A stretch of 64,000 nucleotides of DNA, taken from positions 1,184,001 to 1,248,000 of the forward strand of contig OZ244717.1 of assembly GCA_965218975.1 (NCBI GenBank), in the 5' to 3' direction. Within the stretch, counting starts at the first letter, position 1. Each line of letters starts with the position of its first letter. This document shows positions 1-59,752 of the stretch, piece after piece. This DNA comes from Candidatus Oxydemutatoraceae bacterium (lineage in GTDB: Bacteria > Pseudomonadota > Gammaproteobacteria > Poriferisulfidales > Oxydemutatoraceae). The notes below the pieces were generated by a model. The model saw nothing but the letters and a program-made list of their open reading frames with translations, did no database searches and had not been told where the DNA came from. Both the position numbers and the translations under genes were made by a program.

Positions 1-716
1 TCAATGACCGGTTATGAACCCGTTTTGTAGTTTGTTGGCAGGTTATTAGCACAGTACTTGTCATCCATGACGGGACTTGGTTCTGTTAATCAGCGCCAGC
101 CCCGACGTCCTTGTCGGGTCGTTCGCCGCTGAAAACCGATCGGTTTTCCGGGCGCGTCTCACCCTGCTCGACAACGGCAGCGCGTTTCAAAGGCAGTTTG
201 CCCGGCTCATCCGGGAATCACCTGCGATCGAGCAACGGCCGATCGACCCTAAGTGTCTAAAGATGAACGCGCACGTCGAACGGTTTAACTGTACCGTTCG
301 GCGCACCGTCTTGGAAGATCGGATTGATTATGCAAAAGACCTGCTATTCACCGACACGCAAGTATTCAATGACCGGTTGTGAAACCGTTTTGTGTTTGTT
401 GGCGGGTTATCAGCACAGTACTTGTCATCCATGACGGGACTTGGTTCTGTTAATCAGCGCCAGCCCCGACGTCCTTGTCGGGTCGTTCGCCGCTGAAAAC
501 CGATCGGTTTTCCGGGCGCGTCTCACCCTGCACCGTCCTCATGCCGGCAACGGACAGAAAGCACCGATCCGAATGTTACTGCCGAACGCTTCCCCCGAAG
601 CCCTTCAAAAATCCCATTTAGGGTGGCATCGTACACATCATTCACTGGGGTTGCAATCCCCGATACAATCGCTCCTGACTCACCACCCGAAGTGCCAAAT
701 GTTATGGACCTATACA
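1..716 (+). mobile_element. IS481-family mosaic remnant (locus A, cut by window start): ISa core fragments, 2 R copies, ISa right end, then ISb right end
   Basis: DNGS and KMNAHVERFN integrase-core remnants; ISa right end ...GGGTGGCATCGTACA at 635; ISb right end ...GTTATGGACCTATACA at 716. Confidence 0.85.
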
Positions 717-18819: not shown

Positions 18820-18937
18820 AAACTTTGCCGTAGCCATAGTATTCCAACGATGCCCGGTTTCGGCGGACCCGGTAAAGCCCCCGGATTCGATAGCCTATGT
18901 GTTGGATTTGCAAGGCTGCTTCTCCTGTCGGGAGGAG
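18820..18937 (-). mobile_element. Fragment of ISb left region (LQIQHIGYRIRG), truncated by ISa
   Basis: Close match to 20377-20480 in reverse orientation. Confidence 0.8.
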
Positions 18938-20347
18938 TGTACAGTGCCAGATACATGTGGGATTCACGGCACGACTCAAAAAAGTGACCGATATGCAATA
19001 TCAGCACATTGACCACCGCATCAAAGGTTTCTATAACGAGCCAAATTTGCTTCAAAAATAGAAGCTCATGAGTACAACTGCTCAACAGAAACACGATGCT
19101 CTCATTTTGGGAGGGGTGTAACTCCGAACGCATTCAAGGTCGGTCGCAGTACTTTGTACCGCTGGCGCCAGCGTTATCGCCGCACTGGCTTCAGCGCCTT
19201 ACATGATCGCGGCAAAGCGCCACGTAAGAGGCCCAGCGGATTGTCAGCAAAGTGCTTGTCGTCCATGACGAGACTTGGTTCTGTCAATGAGCGCCAGCCC
19301 CGACGTCCTTGTTGGGTCGTTCGCCGCTGAAAACCGATCGGTTTTCCGGGCGCGTCTCACCCTGCGCTAGGCTTATCCGAATCTCGGCAGCAGTAAAATC
19401 TTTGAGCTGATGAAACCGTTTTGTGTTTGTTGCCGTGTTGTCGGCAAAGTGCCTGTCGTCCATGACGAGACTTGGTTCTGTCAATAAGCGCCAGCCCCGA
19501 CGTCCTTGTCGGGTCGTTCGCCGCTGAAAACCGATCGGTTTTCAGCGGCGCGTCTCACCCTGCCCGAGTGTCCGCACGATTGTGTGCCTGATCGCGGATG
19601 CGCCGGATAAGATCTGTTATAAGATGGCGCTGTATTCCGCAGCGTCTGAATGCCAAAGGACAAACAAAACGACTGTTCAAGCGCCGTTGCAGGGCACGCA
19701 AGCCGAAACACTTCAAAGCACAGTATCCGGGGCATTGCATTGCCCTCCTGGATACGATTGTGCGTTATCAGCACGGAGTGCGCCGCTACGTCTTAACGGC
19801 CATTGATGTCTATACCCGTATGGCAACACGGGAATCACCCGTGATTGAGCAGTGGCTGACCTATCCCAAGTGTCCAAAAATGAACGCACACATCGAGCGT
19901 TTCAACCGCACTGTCCAAGAAGATTGTATCGATCATGCAGAAGACCTGCTATTCGCCGATACGGAAGCATTCAATGATTGATTATGAAACCGTTTTGTGT
20001 TTGTTGGCGGATGCTCAGCAAAGTGCCTGTCGTCCATGACGAGACTTGGTTCTGTCAATAAGCGCCAGCCCCGACATCCTTGTCGGGTCGTTCGCCGCTG
20101 AAAATCGATCGGTTTTCCGGGCGCGTCTCACCCTGCTCGTCCATGACGAGACTTGGTTCTGTCAATAAGCGCCAGCCTCGACGTCCTTGTCGGGTCGTTC
20201 GCCGCTGAAAACCGATCGGTTTTCCGGGCGCGTCTCACCCTGCGCCGCCCTCATGCCGGCAACGGACAGAAAGCACCGATCCGAATGTTACTGCCGAACG
20301 CTTCCCCCGAAGCCCTTCAAGAATCCCATTTAGGGTGGCATCGTACA
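18938..20347 (+). mobile_element. Degenerate IS481-family element ISa with both ends, interrupted by 4 R copies
   Basis: Ends TGTACAGTGCCA / TGGCATCGTACA; collinear transposase remnants MQYQHI..YPNLG..CPSVRTI..LDT..KMNAHIERFN..HRPH..SHLGWHRT. Confidence 0.85.
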
Positions 20348-20352
20348 AAATT

Positions 20353-21814
20353 TGCATAAGCTCAGAAACATTTGGCACTCCTGCCGACAGGAGAAGCAGC
20401 CTTGCAAATCCAACACATAGGCTATCGAATCCGGGGGTTTTACCGGGTCGCTAAAATCGGGCATAGTTGGGATACTATGACTTACGATGCAAAACAACGA
20501 CTCAAAATTCTCACCTTCCAGGAAAACCATGGCATGGCCGCTGCCTGCGATGCATTCAAGGTCAGTCGCCGTACCTTGTATCGGTGGCGGCAGACCTTGA
20601 GGGAAGCCGGACACAACGTAGCGGTACTGGTGCCGCGTTCGACCGCACCGCATCGCCGACGGCAGGCGCGGTGCCCATCCGGTTTGGTGCAAGCAATCCG
20701 CCGTCTGCGCGAGCGGTATCCGAACTTAGGTAAACAGCCGGTGCATAAGTTGCTTGAGCCGTGGTGCGAGCGCCACGGCCTGACCACCCCCAGCGTCTCG
20801 ACTATCGGGCGCATCATCGCCGCAGCGCCTTGATGCCCGCGGTCGGCGCCGACCGTACCGCCGGATCAACAGGTAAAGTCTTTGAGCTGATGAAACCGTT
20901 TTGTGTTTGTTGGTGAATGCTCAGCAAAGTGCCTGTCGTCCATGACGAGACTTGGTTCTGTCAATGAGCGCCAGCCCCGACGTCCTTGTCGGGTCGTTCG
21001 CCGCTGAAAACCGATCGGTTTTCCGGGCGCGTCTCACCCTGCTCGTCCATGACGAGACTTGGTTCTGTCAATGAGCGCCAGCCCCGACGTCCTTGTCGGG
21101 TCGTTCGCCGCTGAAAACCGATCGGTTTTCCGGGCGCGTCTCACCCTGCTCGTCCATGACGAGACTTGGTTCTGTCAATGAGCGCCAGCCCCGACGTCCT
21201 TGTCGGGTCGTTCGCCGCTGAAAACCGATCGGTTTTCCGGGCGCGTCTCACCCTGCTCGTTCATGACGAGACTTGGTTCTGTCAATGAACGCCAGCTCCG
21301 ACGTCCTTGTCGGGTCGTTTGCCACTGAAAACCGATCGGTTTTCCGGGCGCGTCTCACCCGCCGCTACGTGTTCACCTTCATTGCCCCGCGCTCGCGCGT
21401 TGCGTTTGCGTGGGCTTCCACTACCCGCAGCAGCCGGCGCAGCGCACACGCCCTGCAGCTGTTGTGTGAACTGGTGCCGAAACCGATCAACTATATTTTG
21501 TCCGACAACGGCTCGGAGTTTATGAAGGACTTCGAGACCGAGTTGAAACAGCGCCGGACCACCCACTGGTGGACTTATCCGAAGTCGCCGAAGATGAACA
21601 GTTGCTGCGAGCGTTTCAATCGCACCTTGCAGGAGTCATTCGCGGACTACCACGAGGATCTTCTGTTCGCCGACGTGGCCTACTTTAACCGGGAATTGGC
21701 CCAATGGCTGGTGTTTTACAACACCCAGCGCCCCATCATTCACTGGGGTTACAATCCCCGATACAATCGCTCTTAACTCACCATCCGGAGTGCCAAATGT
21801 TATGGACTTATACA
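20353..21814 (+). mobile_element. Degenerate IS481-family element ISb with both ends, middle replaced by a 4x R array
   Basis: Ends TGCATAAGCTCAGAAACATTTGGCACTCC / GGAGTGCCAAATGTTATGGACTTATACA; HTH N-terminus 20402-20833; core (SDNGSEF, ERFNRT) 21360-21814. Confidence 0.88.
20934..21360 (+). repeat. Four head-to-tail copies of the 107-bp R element
   Basis: CATGACGAGAC starts at 20941, 21048, 21155 and 21262 (period 107). Confidence 0.95.
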
Positions 21815-24175: not shown

Positions 24176-25311
24176 TGTACGATGCCACCCTAGATGGGAT
24201 TTTTGAAGGGCTTCGGGGGAAGCGTTCGGCAGTAACATTCGGATCGGTGCTTTCTGTCCGTTGCCGGTATGAGGACGATGCAGGGTGAGACGCGCCGCTG
24301 AAAACCGACCGGTTTTCAGCGGCGAACGACCCGACAAGGACGTCGGGGCTGGGGCTCATTGACAGAACCAAGTCTCGTCATGGACGACAAGCACTTTGCC
24401 AGGTTGCGGCAGTACCGACACTATACACGCCAGGGTCAGGCGCAGGAATGCGGCTATTACAGCGGTTGGTTGCCACTGCTATTGCCATTCGGGTATAGAC
24501 ATCAATGGCCGTTAAGACGTAGCGGCGCACTCCGTGCTGATAACGCACAATCGTATCCAGGGCGATGCAATGCCCCGGGTACTGTGCTTTGAAGTGTTTC
24601 GGCTTGCGTGCCCTGCAACGGCGCTTAAACGGTCGTTTTGTTTGTCCTTTGGCATTCAGCCGCTGCGGAATATAGCGCATTTTATCCGGCGCATTTGCGA
24701 TCAGGCGCGCAATCGTGCGGACACTCGGGCAGGGTGAGATGCGCCCGGAAAACCGATCGGTTTTCAGCGGCGAACGACCCGACAAGGATGTCGGGGCTGG
24801 GGTTCATTCGCAGAACCAAGTTTCATCATGGGTGAGATGCGCCCGGAAAACCAATTGGTTTTCAGCGGTGAACGACCCGACAAGGACGTCGGGGCTGGAG
24901 CTTGTTGACAGAACCCAGTCGCGTCATGGACGACAGGCACTTTGCCGACAATCCGGCACAATCCGCCGACAACACGGCAACAAACACAAAACGGTTTCAT
25001 CAGCTCAAAGATTTTACTGCTGCCGAGATTCGCCAAAGCTGCCGAAATTCTGCCTGGCGCAGGGTGAGACGCGCCCGGAAAACCGATCGGTTTTCAGCGG
25101 CGAACGACTCGACAAGGACGTCGGGGCTGGCGCTCATTGACAGAACCAAGTCTCGTCATGGACGACAAGCACTTTGCTGACAATCCGCCGGCGCCTCTTA
25201 CGCGGCGCTTTGCCGCGATCATGTAAGGCGTGTACGATGCCACCCTAAATGGGATTCTTGAAGGGCTTCTCCTCCTGTGGCAGGAGTGCCAAATGTTTCT
25301 GAGCTTATGCA
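24176..25311 (-). mobile_element. IS481 mosaic locus C: ISa right end, 4 R copies, ISa core and N-terminal pieces, hybrid mini-element
   Basis: TGTACGATGCC at 24176; HCIALDTIVRY remnant; ISb left end ...CTTATGCA at 25311. Confidence 0.85.
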
Positions 25312-31508: not shown

Positions 31509-33484
31509 TGTACGATACCACCCTAAATGAGATTTTTGAAGGGCTTCGGGGGAAGCGTTCGGCAGTAACATTCGGATCGGTGCTTTCTGTCCGTTGCCGG
31601 CATGAGGACGGTGCAGGGTGAGACGCGCCCGGAAAACCGATCGGTTTTCAGCGGCGAACGACCCGACAAGGACGTCGGGGCTGGCGCTCATTGACAGAAC
31701 CCAGTCTCGTCATGGGTGAGACGCGCCCGGAAAACCAATTGGTTTTCAGCGGTGAACGACCCGACAAGGACGTCGGGGCTGGGGCTTGTTGACAGAACCC
31801 AGTCGCGTCATGATGGACGACAGGCACTTTGCCGACAATCCGGCACAATCCGCTGACAACACGGCAACAAACACAAAACGGTTTCATAATCAATCATTGA
31901 ATGCTTCCGTATCGGCGAATAGCAGGTCTTCTGCATGATCGATACAATCTTCTTGGACCGTACGGTTGAAGTGCTCGTTATAAGCATTCATTTTGGGGTA
32001 CCCGGGTAAGTATAGCAGTGGCGGATCTTTCGGTGCCGTCGGTCAATACTTGCTCGATTTTGCCCGGCAAGACCGTTTGCACCAAGGCGACAAACCGAGC
32101 CGCTTGGGTGCTATTGCCGCGAGGCACTGCCGACGAAGGCAAAGCGGCTTGAATGATCCGTTGCGGTCGGAATATAGCGTCGGCTGCCTTCAATAAAACG
32201 GATAATAGTATCGAAAGCAACATAGTGTCCGACATGCTTGGCACCGGCTTTGCGATCTAGACGCGGGCGCGGCGGCTTACGTCGCAACGGTTTAGCTTGA
32301 CCTTTGCGGTCCAAGCGCTGGGTGAGAAACGCATCCGATCCGAGGCATCTGAAATCAAGCGTCCGATCGTCGTCGCACTCGGACACAACAGACCTTGCTT
32401 CCGGCACCACGGCAAGTGCAACACATAAATCTTGTCCCGTCCCTAGTGGGGTATCTTAGGCGCAGACGACGGATTTCCCGGGTCAGAGTTCGCGGCCAGA
32501 CTCAACGTCGGCGTTTACGCGGCGTTCTGCTGCGGTCGTGCAAACTGCTCAACCCTCCCTTTTGTGTTTGTTGGCGGATTGTCGGCAAAGTGCCTGTCGT
32601 CCATGACGAGACTTAGTTCTGTCAATGAGCGCCAGCCCCGACGTCCTTGTCGGGTCGTTCGCCGCTGAAAACCGATCGGTTTTCCGGGCGCGTCTCACCC
32701 TGTCGATAGGCCAGGGCGCCATGCATACAGCATCGAACGACTGATCTTGAACGCGTTCGGGAGTTACAACCATCCCAAAATAATAGAGCATCATATCTCT
32801 GTTGAAGCTTAGAGCGCTCATGAGCCTCCATTTTTGAAGCAAAATTGGCTCATATAGAAACCTTTGATGCGGTGGCCGATATGCTGGTATTACATGTCGG
32901 TCACCTTTTTATTGACGTCCAAGAATCCAGTATGTATCTGGATACGTACAGGGTCAGGCGCAGGAATGCGGCTGCGTTGCGGCTGTTACAGCGGTTGGTT
33001 GCCACTGCTATTGCCATTCGGGTATAGACATTGATGGCCGTTAAGCGTAGCGGCGCACTCCGCTGATAACGCACAATCGTATCCAGGGCGATGCAATGCC
33101 CCGGATACTGTGCTTTGAAGTGTTTCGGCTTGCGTGCCCTGCAACGGCGCTTAAACGGATCAGGTTTTGCGGCCGGGGCCGCCGATGCCTCTTGCGCGGC
33201 GCTTTGCCGCGGTCATGCAAAGCGCTGAGTCCGGTGCGGCGATAACGCCAGCGCCAGCGGTACAAAGTACTGCGACCGACCTTAAATGCGCTCGGGAGTT
33301 ACAACCCTCCCAAAATGAGAGCAGCATATTTCTGTTGAAGTTTAGAGCGCTCATTAGCCTCTATTTTTGAAGTTAAACAGGCTCATATAGAAACCTTTGA
33401 TGCGGTGGCCGATGTGCTTGATATTGCATATCGGTCACCTTATTATTGACACCCAAGAACCCAGTATGTATCTGGACACGTACA
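31509..33484 (-). mobile_element. IS481 mosaic locus D: two ISa-type left ends, one right end, a third-lineage (ISc) fragment, 3 R copies in both orientations
   Basis: TGTACGATACC at 31509; left ends at 32950 and 33484; divergent core VAFDTIIRFIEGSRRY at ~32130-32300. Confidence 0.85.
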
Positions 33485-35833: not shown

Positions 35834-36614
35834 TGTATAGGTCCATAACATTTGGCACTCCGGGTGGGGAGTCAGGAGCGATTGTATCGGGGATTGCAAC
35901 CCCAGTGAATGATGGGGGCGTTGGGTGTTGTAAAACACCAGCCATTGCGCCAATTCCCGGTTAAAGCAGGGGCCATATCAATGAACAGGAGCTTCTCGCA
36001 AAGAAGCTGCGCGGTAGTCCGTGAATGATTCCTGCAAGGTGCGGTTGAAGGTTCAACGTGCGCGTTCATCTTTGGCGACTTCGGGTAGGTCCACCAGTGG
36101 GTGGTCCGGCGCTGTTTCAACTCGGTCTCGAAGTCCTTCATAAACTCCGAGCCGTTGTCGGACAAGATATAGTTGATCGGTTTCGGCACCAGTTCACATA
36201 ACAGCCGCAGGGCGTGTGCGCTGCGCCGGTTGCTGCGGGTAGTGGAAGCCCCCGCGAACGCAACGCGCGAGCGCGGGTCAATGAAGGTGAACACGTAGCG
36301 GCGGGTGAGATGCGCCCGGAAAACCGATCGGTTTTCAGCGGCGAACGACCCGACAAGGACGTCGGAGCTGGCGCTCATTGACAGAACCAGGTCTCGTCAT
36401 GGACGAGCAGGGTGAGACGCGCCCGGAAAACCAATCGGTTTTCAGCCAGGTCTCGTTATGGACGACAGGCACTTTGCTGAGCATTTACCAACAAACACAA
36501 AACGGTTTCATCCGCTCGAAGACTTTACTGTTGCCGAGGTTCGCCAAAGCTGCCGAGATTCGTCCGGCACAGACGTTTGATTTCACGTTGAATCGGTTGC
36601 GGCTGCATAAGCTC
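35834..36614 (-). mobile_element. IS481 mosaic locus E: ISb right half, 2 R copies (one truncated), ISa N-terminal piece
   Basis: TGTATAGGTCCATAACATTTGGCACTCC at 35834; SDNGSEF remnant. Confidence 0.85.
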
Positions 36615-38932: not shown

Positions 38933-39662
38933 TGTATAGGTCCATAACATTCGGCACGGCGGCTGTCGACCTAAACCGGCATGTGCGGTCGGTGCATCCC
39001 AGATTGAAAGCGCACGATCGCATGCCGGGCGATGCAATGTCCCGGATACTGCGCTTTGAAGTGTTTCGGCTTGCGTGCCCTGCAACGGTGCTTGAACGGT
39101 CGTTTTGTTTTGCTGCGGAATACAGCGCATTTTATCCGGCGCACAATCGTGCAGGCACTCGGGCCAGGGTGAGACGCGCCCGGAAACCCGACCGGTTTTC
39201 AGCGGCGAACGACCCGACAAGGATGTCAAGGCTGTAGTTCATTCGCAGAACCAAGTCTCGTCAGCTCAAAGACTTTACTGCTGCTGAGATTCGCCAAAGC
39301 TGCTGAAATTCTGCCCGGCGCAGGCGTTTGATTTCACGCTGAATCGGTTATGGCCGGACCCGCCGACGCCGTTTGCGCGGCGCTTTGCCGCGGTCATGCA
39401 AGGCGCTGAGTCCAGTGCGGCGATAACGCCGACGCCAGCGGTACAAAGTACTGCGACCGACCTTGGATGCGTTCGGGAGTTACATCCTCCCAAAATGAGG
39501 GCAGCATATTTCTGTTGAGCCGTTGTGCTCATAAGCCTCCATTTTATTAGTTAACAAAGGCTCATACAGAAACTTTTGATGCGGTGGTTGATGTGCTGAT
39601 ATTGCATATCGGGCACCTTTTTATTGAAAAGTATCTGTCCGGTATGTATCCGGCACTATGTA
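38933..39662 (-). mobile_element. IS481 mosaic locus F: ISb right tip fused to ISa left half, 1 R copy
   Basis: TGTATAGGTCC at 38933; MQYQHI-type start and degenerate left end near 39662. Confidence 0.8.
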
Positions 39663-48773: not shown

Positions 48774-49790
48774 TGTATAGGTCCATAACATTTGGCACTC
48801 CGGGTGGGGAGTCAGGAGCGATTGTATCGGGGATTGTAACCCCAGTGAATGATGGGGGCGTTGGGTGTTGTAAAACACCAGCCATTGTGCCAATTCCTGG
48901 TTAAAGCAGGCCACATCAGTGAACAGAAGATCCTCGTGGTAGTCCACGAATGATTCCTGCAAGGTGCGGTTGAAGCGCTCGATGTGCGCGTTCATCTTTG
49001 GCGACTTCGGATAGGTCCACCAGTGGGTGATCCGGCGCTGTTTCAACTCGGTCTCGAAGTCCTTCAGCCGCAGGGCGTGTGCGCTGCGCCGACTGCTGCG
49101 GGTAGTGGAAGCCCACGCGAACGCAACGCGCGAGCGCGGGTCAATGAAGGTGAACACGTAGCGGCGCGTCTCACCCTGCCCAAGTGTCCGCACGATTGCG
49201 CGCCTGATCGCGGATGCGCCAGATAAAATGCGCTGTATTCCACAGCGTCTGAATGCCAAAGGACAAACAAAACGACTGTTCAAGCGCCGATGCAAGGCAC
49301 GCAAGCCGAAACATTTCAAAGCACAGTATCCGGAGCATTGCATCGCCCTGGATACGATTGTGCGTTATCAGCACGGAGTGCGCCGCTACGTCTTAACGGC
49401 CATCGATGTCTATACCCGAATGGCAATAGCAGTGGCAATCAACCGCTGTAACAGCTGCAACGCAGCCGCATTCCTGCGCCTAGCAGAATTTCGGCAGCAG
49501 TAAAGTCTTTGAGCTGATGAAACCGTTTTGTGTTTGTTGCCGGATTGTCGGCAAAGTGCCTGTCGTCCATGACGAGACTTGGTTCTGTCAATGAGCGCCA
49601 GCCCCGACGTCCTTGTCGGGTCGTTCGCCGCTGAAAACCGATCGGTTTTCCGGGCGCGTCTCACCCTGCACCGTCCTCATGCCGGCAACGGACAGAAAGC
49701 ACCGATCCGAATGTTATTGCCGAACGCTTCCTCCGAAGCCCTTCAAAAATCCCATTTAGAGTGGCATCGTACAAAGAGTGGCATCGTACA
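48774..49790. mobile_element. IS481 mosaic locus G: inverted fusion of ISb right half (-) and ISa pieces (+), 1 R copy plus an R stub
   Basis: ISb right end at 48774; ISa right end at 49773, its terminal 16 bp repeated at 49775-49790. Confidence 0.85.
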
Positions 49791-58830: not shown

Positions 58831-59752
58831 TGTATAGTACCAGATACATATGGGACTCACGGCTTAACTCGAAAAGGTGGCCGATATGCAATATCAGCAC
58901 ATCGGCCACCGCATCAAAGGTTTCTATATGAGCCAATTTTGCTTCAAAAATAGAGGCTCATGAACACAACGGCTCAACAGAAACACGATGCCCTGTTATT
59001 TTGGGAGGATTGTAACCCCAAACGCATTTAAGGTCAGTCGCCGTACCTTGTATTGGTGGCGACAGACCTTGAGGGAAGCCGGACACAACGTAGCGGCAAA
59101 GCGCCGCGCAAGAGACGTCGGCGGACCTGGCCGCAACCCGGCAAAGTGCCTGTCGTCCATGACGAGACTTGGTTCTGTCAATGAGCGCCAGCCCCGACGT
59201 CCTTGTCGGGTCGTTCGCCGCTGAAAACCGATCGGTTTTCCGGGCGCGTCTCACCCTGACGAACGGCGGTAGAGTGTCCAAAAATGAACGCGCACATCGA
59301 GCGCTTCAACCGCACCGTCCAAGAAGATTGTATTGATCATGCGGACGACCTGCTATTCGCCGATACGGAAGCATTCAATGACCGGTTATGAAACCGTTTT
59401 GTGTTTGTTGCCGGATTGTGCCGGATTGTCGGCAAAGTGCCTGTCACCCATGACGAGACTTGGTTCTATCAACAAGCCCCAGCCCCGACGTCCTTGTCGG
59501 GTCGTTCACCGCTGAAAACCAATTGGTTTTCCGGGCGCGTCTCACCCATGATGAGACTTGGTTCTGTCAATGAGCGCCAGCCTCGACGTCCTTGTCGGGT
59601 CGTTCGTCGCTGAAAACCGATCGATTTTCCGGGCGCGTCTCACTCTGCACCGCCCTCATGCCGGCAACGGACAGAAAGCACCGATCCGAATGTTACTGCC
59701 GAACGCTTCCCCCGAAGCCCTTCAAAAATCCCATTTAGGGTGGCATCGTACA
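58831..59752 (+). mobile_element. Internally deleted ISa with both ends, 3 R copies and a 5-bp target duplication (locus H)
   Basis: TGTATAGTACCAGATACAT ... GGCATCGTACA; ACTTA at 58826-58830 and 59753-59757. Confidence 0.9.

Follow-up and report, generated by a model that had tools for sequence, protein, structure and literature searches.

In this study we examine R, a hairpin-rich repeat of 98-107 nucleotides (nt), and the decayed insertion sequences (IS) of the IS481 family in which it lies. The window, a stretch of 64,000 nt from Candidatus Oxydemutatoraceae bacterium, comprises bases 1184001-1248000 of its genome. That genome is a single contig of 2,081,000 bp, with a completeness of 99.4%. 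At positions 18938-21814 two such elements, ISa and ISb, stand side by side and hold eight copies of R between them. The best reading is that R is a lineage-specific hairpin minisatellite that rides in dead IS481 derivatives and scrambles them.

The IS481 locus and the window

ISa is still collinear with an IS481 transposase gene when it is translated or searched with tblastn. As the first-pass annotation of this DNA had described, R interrupts it at three sites: after GKAPRKR (site 1), between KPFC and CPSV (site 2) and between FND and HRPH (site 3). The frame is disrupted by these segments, by one frameshift and by one internal deletion. ISb is a second, diverged lineage, and R was rightly reported there too. 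It carries an array of four units. The second and third do not differ, and the first equals them across its shorter 103 nt. ISb retains its own EPWC...PSVSTI region upstream of the array. The stretch with the first catalytic Asp is replaced, and an R-free ISb copy reveals what was lost. Since ISa flank (TAAAGTCTTTGAGCTGATGAAACCGTTTTG) and leader precede the array, it must have come from ISa-type DNA. At least two different left junctions join ISb to ISa sequence.

R was searched for in the window with the 18-nt palindrome GAAAACCGATCGGTTTTC, tolerating up to 2 mismatches. It matches 24 times, against 0 in 100 shuffles. This reproduces exactly the 24 copies counted before, with 2, 8, 4, 3, 2, 1, 1 and 3 at the successive loci. 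By blastn, 23 of them measure at least 60 nt, and the remaining one is a partial copy of 36 nt at 36411-36446. Tandem Repeats Finder gives a period of 107 nt for ISa, with 2.0 copies, and for ISb, with 4.0, and one of 98 nt at three further arrays. IS481 coding similarity forms 9 clusters in the window. Each has R no more than 600 bp away, and each R sits at one of them. Inside the window it is thus correct that R occurs only in IS481 sequence and that every transposase locus has it. The features are collected in Table 1.

Table 1. Features of the R-bearing IS481 loci, in window positions
Feature	Position	Strand	Detail
IS481 remnant	1..716	+	2 R copies (61-163, 425-527)
Inverted copy of ISb left part	18866..18939	-	adjoins ISa left end; partner arm 20376-20449, 97% complementary
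ISa, decayed IS481-family element	18938..20347	+	ends TGTACAGTGCC / GGCATCGTACA (TGTACA...TGTACA, inverted); from translation and tblastn
R at site 1	19259..19361	+	after GKAPRKR; short leader GGATTGTCAGCAAAGTGCTTGTCGT before it
Site-2 leader	19424..19459	+	non-native, after KPFC (TGTTTGTTGCCGTGTTGTCGGCAAAGTGCCTGTCGT); always found with R
R at site 2	19456..19559	+	KPFC|CPSV; perfected 30-nt palindrome GCCGCTGAAAACCGATCGGTTTTCAGCGGC
Site-3 left junction	19985..20033	+	FND, then second copy of site-2 flank ATGAAACCGTTTTG and leader
Two tandem R at site 3	20030..20239	+	period 107; followed by CTGCGCCGCCCTCATGCC (HRPH)
ISb, second diverged IS481 lineage	20353..21814	+	N-terminal helix-turn-helix part and C-terminal rve part
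ISa-derived flank within ISb	20874..20939	+	TAAAGTCTTTGAGCTGATGAAACCGTTTTG and leader
Four tandem R in ISb	20936..21359	+	period 107; ISb resumes at GCCGCTACGTG (RRYVF)
IS481 remnant	24176..25311	-	4 R copies (24284-24387, 24733-24831, 24831-24933, 25063-25165), including a dimer of 98-nt period
IS481 remnants	31509..33484	mixed	3 R copies (31617-31715 and 31715-31812 on -; 32597-32699 on +)
ISb-type remnant	35834..36614	-	R 36304-36410 and the 36-nt partial copy
IS481 remnant	38933..39662	-	one diverged R (39168-39263, 90% identity)
IS481 remnant	48774..49790	+	R 49563-49665; at ~49180 an inverted ISb/ISa junction with only the last 17 nt of R
Complete 922-bp non-autonomous element	58831..59752	+	both ISa ends, 3 R, perfect 5-bp target duplication ACTTA

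Distribution across the genome

The genome-wide census used one 107-nt unit as the blastn probe and counted copies of at least 60 nt. There are 317 copies at 96 loci, with 1 to 12 copies per locus. Together they occupy 32.2 kb, or 1.55% of the 2.08 Mb genome. The strand tally is 158:159 overall. Within loci 220 of 221 adjacent pairs lie on the same strand, and the locus at 31509-33484 is the sole one of the 96 with mixed strands. The commonest spacings are 98 nt (50 times), 102/103 (39), 197 (15) and 107 (14).

R lies within 100 bp of IS481 coding similarity at 74 of the 96 loci, compared to 6% under random placement. Another 18 loci are far from any such similarity, 16 of them by more than 2 kb and the other two by 823 and 1687 bp. 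We inspected these 18, and nearly all are bounded by an ISa right end (...GGGTGGCATCGTACA) or by an IS left end followed by the leader. Carried to the whole genome, the earlier claim that R never lies outside IS481 sequence has to be put more mildly, though nearly all of these 18 loci still have an IS-derived leader or end. The companion claim that each transposase locus contains R does not carry over, since R is missing within 500 bp of 16 of the 93 IS481 clusters.

The R(+) sense is on the leading strand at 60 of the 96 loci and opposite at 36, as judged from cumulative GC skew, which is lowest near 270 kb and highest near 1.5 Mb (binomial p 0.018, uncorrected). This probably mirrors the bias in gene orientation.

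It is worth considering whether the mosaics and arrays are artefacts of assembling a repeat-rich genome. The genome is a single contig from one source, and repeats of 98-107 nt are hard for short-read assembly. Against this, dozens of loci whose flanks are unique show junctions of the same classes, and target duplications flank five elements. Runs of three studies (4 runs were examined) also yield Logan contigs with R, leader and IS junction sequence, although these contigs are short and multi-mapping and none spans an array or the whole stretch. One contig of run X6 covers 19829-20066, across the FND|leader|R junctions. We regard an assembly artefact as highly improbable.

R is foreign to the transposase gene

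R-free versions of the insertion sites survive in the genome. At site 2 there are 21 CPSV-side junctions: 18 with full R (ending ...GTCTCACCCTGC), one with only the last 17 nt of R, one that is rearranged and one that is native. The native copy (genome position ~211209, minus strand) reads ...ATGAAACCGTTTTG CCATCGCCACCAGCTGCT CTGCCCAAGTGTCC, which translates as KPFC-HRHQLL-CPSV. This implies that leader and R took the place of 18 nt, and it agrees with the earlier statement that about six residues natively separate KPxC from CPSV. At site 3 we inspected 10 of 15 R-free ISa right ends. In six the sequence that follows FN[DE]R is still native-like, and four of the six clearly read AFNDRL-WEYLxWYN-LHRPH. 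In the R-bearing copies 24 native nt are replaced here. Native R-free copies of site 1 exist too.

R shows no significant likeness to native IS sequence from which it might derive. Its local alignments with native ISa DNA score 16 and 21; for shuffled R the mean score is 19.1 and the highest is 27. These results and the surviving R-free sites uphold the view that R is foreign to the gene. No target duplication belonging to R itself was found at sites 2 and 3, where native nucleotides are replaced.

Leader and junctions

The left side of R is constant. A complete 5' end is present in 184 of 192 arrays, and these were scored for the 17-nt leader GGCAAAGTGCCTGTCGT with up to 4 mismatches. It precedes 172 of the 184, and degenerate forms precede the remaining 12. 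None of the 184 has an unrelated left flank. The copied segment begins at different points in different places. At site 3 and in ISb it extends into the native site-2 flank ATGAAACCGTTTTG (in ISb also AAAGTCTTTGAGCTG), and at sites 1 and 4 just 17-25 nt of leader are present. This does not match a transposon with fixed ends. We argue that the segments were copied from one ancestral locus.

The right side falls into a few classes: CTGCACCG (41 junctions), CTGCGCC[AG].. (~36), CTGACGGAC (21), CTGCCCGAG (13) and CGGCAACGG (8). About 25 further junctions are singletons that start CGG, CAG, CAT, CGT or CTT. R lies upstream on the same strand at 80 of 95 ISa right ends, and 48 of the 95 have the identical R|HRPH junction.

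Comparing the junctions with native sequences shows shared microhomologies of 2-7 nt, mostly CCTG. The 3' end of R (...CACCCTGC) shares 5 nt with native AACCTGCACC at site 3, 4 nt with ATCCTGACGG at site 4, 5 nt with CGCCTGCGCC on the right side of site 1 and 6 nt with GCCCTGCAAG in the right tail. It shares 4 nt with the leader at GTGCCTGTCGT, the junction that founds the 106/107-nt tandem. The common letters are CCTG or CCTGC at the right side of site 1, at site 3, at site 4 and where the 106/107 tandem is joined, and CCCTGC at R|CTGCAAGAA. Two cases do not involve the end of R. The R-internal CGCCGCT shares 7 nt with ISb CGCCGCTACG, and a deletion between sites 1 and 2 lies at the 6 shared nt ATGAAA.

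Deletions without R are found in these IS copies at CCGCAACC and at CGGAT. One ISa derivative of 618 bp (G000:C1:1500778-1501395) retains both ends and lacks R. An internal deletion has brought IWPQP next to VKYILTDGGSEF, at an octamer common to both sides, CCGCAACC. Deletions at microhomologies thus arise in this IS family without R.

The leader itself holds a smaller minisatellite, with 10-11-nt units GGATTGT(C/G)(C/G)G(C/G) in 1 to ~8 copies. It is seen at G000:C1:364850-364997, upstream of 153060, at 390190-390337 and in the window leader at 19424-19459. The native site-1 sequence CGGCGGATCTGGCC is similar, and the minisatellite may derive from it.

One can imagine a scenario where leader and R are, or once were, an independent small mobile element that prefers IS481 genes. 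It could be the relic of a hairpin-ended single-strand transposon with a CCTG-like target, or a MITE (miniature inverted-repeat transposable element) like RUP, in either case with its enzyme lost. RUP is reportedly a 107-bp pneumococcal repeat unit whose inverted ends are its own and resemble IS630-Spn1, and it goes into TA sites as one piece. Ends of this kind are missing from R, which makes no target duplication of its own and is never without the ISa leader. The pages of PMC3049150 that treat RUP offer a precedent for such an element, with the proposal that RUP inserts near IS elements and so limits functional transposases. R has a sharp 3' boundary with CTG next to it in most junction classes, it has two hairpins in subterminal-like positions, and it occupies several gene positions in two IS lineages. 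These traits speak for the scenario. Against it, the left boundary moves from site to site, and in no array is the flank beyond it unrelated to the leader. The singleton right junctions do not fit, and the replacement of 18 or 24 nt at sites 2 and 3 with no duplication does not fit either. Derivation of the site classes from one another through shared flanks is largely shown. We rejected RUP-like transposon status on the grounds of the constant ISa leader, the site-dependent left limit, the replaced 18-24 nt and the missing duplication. IS200/IS605 palindrome-associated elements (PATE) and REP-RAYT systems have a fixed target of four or five nucleotides beside one end and a strong strand bias with replication. 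For R, CTG follows in most, not all, junction classes, and the loci split only 60:36 by strand, much like the ordinary bias in gene orientation.

The enzymes that could move such an element were also searched for. Y1/HUH (PF01797) has 0 matches in the genome and is found in 6 of 14 control genomes. The IS110 DEDD transposase and reverse transcriptase (RVT_1) each have 0 matches in the whole genome, and positive controls were run for both. The first-pass annotation had proposed a search for genes of these kinds next to an R-like sequence, and none of the three is in the genome. Nothing thus links R to an IS110 bridge RNA or to an RNA associated with a retroelement. We consider an independent element unlikely. 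A bolder version would make leader and R the relic of an undescribed small hairpin element, a 'hyperparasite' that passes among IS copies of two lineages through recombinogenic ends of its own, by CCTG-guided template switching or conversion, and helps to drive IS481 to extinction. This seems to us decidedly unlikely.

Arrays and hairpins

Adjacent tandem units have a median identity of 0.939, and 9 of 120 pairs are identical. Random pairs have 0.909 and 0.4% identical. A dimer of two subtypes recurs in 12 arrays. Since neighbours are only somewhat more alike and this dimer recurs, the arrays must mix inherited multimers with recent local amplification. Leader + R units of 150-220 nt form tandem arrays as well. 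The tandem periods of 98 and 106/107 nt are compatible with slippage.

R has two nearly invariant hairpins, one formed by CCCGAC/GTCGGG and the other by a long palindrome. In ~10 copies the quasi-palindrome GCCGCTGAAAACC..GGTTTTCCGGGCGC has been turned into a perfect 30-nt palindrome, ...GGTTTTCAGCGGC. Two of these are in the window (19510-19545, 24293-24317), and about eight are elsewhere in the genome, found as 22-25-nt matches to the opposite strand. The perfection of a quasi-palindrome is a classic footprint of template switching.

The hairpins could instead mean that R is a functional module under selection, such as a structured RNA, a palindromic protein-binding site or a terminator-like site that the elements carry. 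Both hairpins are kept in nearly all copies. Among 245 distinct copies, 55 have double changes from G-C to A-T at the palindrome centre, which look compensatory. The unit with its leader (141 nt) folds with z-scores of -5.4 on the + strand and -6.0 on the - strand. However, the 107-nt unit alone reaches just -1.7 and -2.1. The compensatory changes hardly go beyond the two bases in the middle of the palindrome, where an RNA hairpin would have its loop. The closing helix and the 5' hairpin are disrupted in 60-120 of the 245 copies, and RNAalifold keeps only one 5-bp hairpin across them. R variants form linked subfamilies, and the two sets of variants are of this kind. Rfam gives nothing at gathering score across the window. 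A permissive scan of 19200-19620 was set aside, as it gave only chance-level palindrome matches (the best is a plant miRNA model with 27 bits against 93). Terminator-like sites (5 vs 3.8 in shuffles) and promoter-like sites (2 vs 1.9) are at shuffle level, and the number of copies per locus varies from 1 to 12. We find a selected function very doubtful.

Two other readings of the arrays were tried and rejected. They are not CRISPR-like: the 94-nt 'spacers' of the arrays with 197-nt period are one constant ISa segment (AYPNLG..KPFC and leader), and the other arrays have no spacer. R is not coding, given that its periods are not multiples of 3 and most frames have stops. It must be noted that open frames of 90-141 amino acids (aa) do cross the arrays (window 77-382, 441-725, 24715-25140 and others). 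They are by-products of the repeat that can be miscalled as genes, which makes R arrays an annotation hazard.

The carrier elements

The IS481 copies in this genome are remnants of a family, not intact members. The IS481 model NF033577 has 128 fragment matches, the best with 90.1 bits against a cut-off of 224, and no intact IS481 transposase was found by this search of the genome. Matches to rve are in open frames of at most 246 aa, save for one weak match of 18.6 bits in a 666-aa frame. Among 40 relatives, 15 have IS481 matches at E <=1e-20, many of them full-length in open frames of ~350 aa, and just one (G013) passes the curated NF033577 cut-off. The nearest intact proteins to the ISa fragment in a search of 5.8 billion sequences are 33-44% identical, so there is no close intact master to compare.

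The ends have outlasted the gene. Genome-wide, 81 left-type and 90 right-type ends start with TGTAC, in keeping with the TGT...ACA ends named earlier for IS481-type elements. We find 37 elements with both ISa-type ends, from 378 to 2012 bp. Of these, 36 hold 1-12 R and one (618 bp) holds none. Perfect 5-bp target duplications flank 5 of the 37, against 1 of 1332 mismatched-pair controls. There are two pairs of short elements that are collinear at separate loci (86% and 80% identity). That there are only two is due to differing array lengths. Both parent ends, the missing transposase, the target duplication and an architecture that recurs across loci are the marks of a MITE or non-autonomous IS derivative. 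An autonomous partner with matching ends, which is another, was not found in the genome. The shared junction classes, the two-ended elements with duplications and the collinear pairs indicate that R-bearing non-autonomous elements multiplied as wholes.

The decay of the family invites another explanation, in which the host benefits from R as a cassette that is repeatedly pasted into IS481 copies, or converted among them, to inactivate them. All IS481 copies are dead, most ISa right ends (80/95) have R upstream, and R segments of ISa type came into ISb by no fewer than two distinct left junctions. However, the 16 of 93 clusters without R are broken too. The IS copies have many lesions that are independent of R (R-free microhomology deletions, stops and frameshifts). 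The junction classes are shared by descent among loci, and no associated genes were found. A host cassette is very hard to credit on this evidence.

Origin and spread of R

We argue that R is most probably a passenger module of one IS481 lineage that entered once, spread with defective elements and was amplified locally. About 115-140 nt of foreign, hairpin-rich DNA, consisting of a leader ending in GGCAAAGTGCCTGTCGT and a ~99-nt R core, would have entered the ISa transposase gene a single time and broken its frame. Defective elements with R and both IS ends could then have spread to ~90 loci, most likely moved in trans by a transposase that the genome no longer has. The two strong hairpins and the short CCTG direct repeats in the leader and at the 3' end of R may have promoted slippage, unequal exchange and microhomology-mediated template switching. 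These processes would explain four features that are observed: tandem arrays with discrete periods (98, 106/107 and, for leader + R, 150-220 nt), nested deletions from the 3' end of R into downstream IS sequence, copies of leader + R elsewhere in the gene and ISa/ISb chimeras. The IS481 family is now extinct, which would leave the R arrays as neutral or selfish minisatellites and recombination hot spots.

The first-pass annotation preferred a parasite that targets IS481 or a host cassette that is repeatedly pasted in. Neither is supported, in view of the want of any unrelated left flank, the ISa flank that is carried along, the variable boundaries, the microhomology junctions and the lack of a mobilising gene. 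It also offered a mundane alternative, one ancestral insertion spread by recombination, and this is the one we favour, with the transposition of R-bearing defective elements added to it. R most likely looks like junk DNA and not like a system that hunts or silences jumping genes.

Several observations weigh against the passenger scenario as we have put it. The shared junctions could have spread by gene conversion instead of transposition, and target duplications are kept by only 5 of the 37 elements. Identity is 94% in R, 95% in the right tail and 90% in the leader and left parts, which shows no clear conversion gradient, though this is a crude test. The 3' boundary of R is very sharp (always ...GTCTCACC C) and most of its partners start with CTG, so a site-specific process would match as well. 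The changes from G-C to A-T at the palindrome centre could reflect selection for a hairpin or a symmetric site, beyond quasipalindrome correction. The primary site may be 1 or 2, and the GGATTGT motif of the leader resembles native site-1 sequence. The array structure rests on a single assembly, and short-read contigs cannot span the arrays. Finally, no source of R was found anywhere. R is in 0 of 40 relatives, and this is the only genome of its genus. Leader + R has no blastn match in plasmids and phages. Exact-pattern scans for two R motifs in collections of genomes and metagenomes, and a single such scan of viral contigs, gave 0 matches, and this genome and its near relatives may be absent from them.

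If R was a passenger, its arrays record the death of an insertion-sequence family. A foreign hairpin breaks the transposase, the defective copies out-multiply their master, and hairpins with repeats of 4-7 nt scramble the copies into mosaics and minisatellites. The arrays are likely rearrangement hot spots, and strains of this uncultured bacterium could likely be typed with them as length-variable markers. They also hold a caution: a repeat can be confined to IS DNA as a result of descent, and targeting is not required.

Comparison with known elements

Judged by architecture, BOX and the BrickBuilt MITE with its minisatellite appear to be the closest known kinds. Like both, R arrays join a fixed head and tail to tandem internal modules that vary in number and have no spacers. 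R arrays have a constant leader, few tail classes, 1-12 units and periods of 98 and 106/107 nt. In the part of PMC3049150 that deals with it, the BOX element of Streptococcus pneumoniae has the form boxA-(boxB)n-boxC with stem-loops, and it is thought to be parasitic and mobilised in trans via IS-like ends. The likeness to that account (PMC3049150) is in the modular repeat, non-coding and present in many copies, that has stem-loops and whose tandem internal modules vary in number between a constant head and tail. The difference is that head and tail here are recognisable remnants of an IS481 transposase gene with true ends. In addition, the R module is 98-107 nt and boxB is ~45 nt, and no intact mobilising IS is left in this genome.

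BrickBuilt of Porphyromonas gingivalis, so far as the relevant part of PMC4596501 describes it, has a 23-nt minisatellite unit, exists in 19 copies that are always intergenic, and has promoter activity. Like R, it is a minisatellite without spacers in a multi-copy, non-autonomous inverted-repeat element with a 'leader' and a 'tail' and a narrow host range (same part of PMC4596501). R differs from that description (PMC4596501) in its unit of 98-107 nt with two hairpins, in its 317 units at 96 loci, and in promoter-like sites that are at the level of shuffles.

Nezha/ISNpu3 is named in the corresponding part of PMC3049150 as an IS-derived MITE that is mobilised in trans. The R-bearing elements resemble such MITEs and internally deleted IS derivatives in having both ends of the parent IS, no transposase, target duplications (5/37) and sizes down to 378 bp. 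They differ in that many copies are 1-2 kb with long gene remnants, the autonomous partner is absent and the interior is scrambled by microhomology events.

Other observations

Three loci have features of their own. At G000:C1:1034860-1035700 there are three tandem units of ~302 bp, each with R positions 30-107 only and unrelated AT-rich sequence, and the last ends in an ISa right end. These are a different composite repeat with a captured R fragment. The R-bearing elements at G000:C1:841276-842098 and 879555-880374 (823 and 820 bp) are 95% identical and have the same 10-nt flanks on both sides. They are not independent insertions, since both lie within a larger segmental duplication. Lastly, the 74-nt inverted arms in Table 1, one of them the 5' part of ISb, put ISa between inverted copies of ISb sequence. 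Such an arrangement implies that a piece was inverted, or that one element inserted into another and the DNA was then rearranged.

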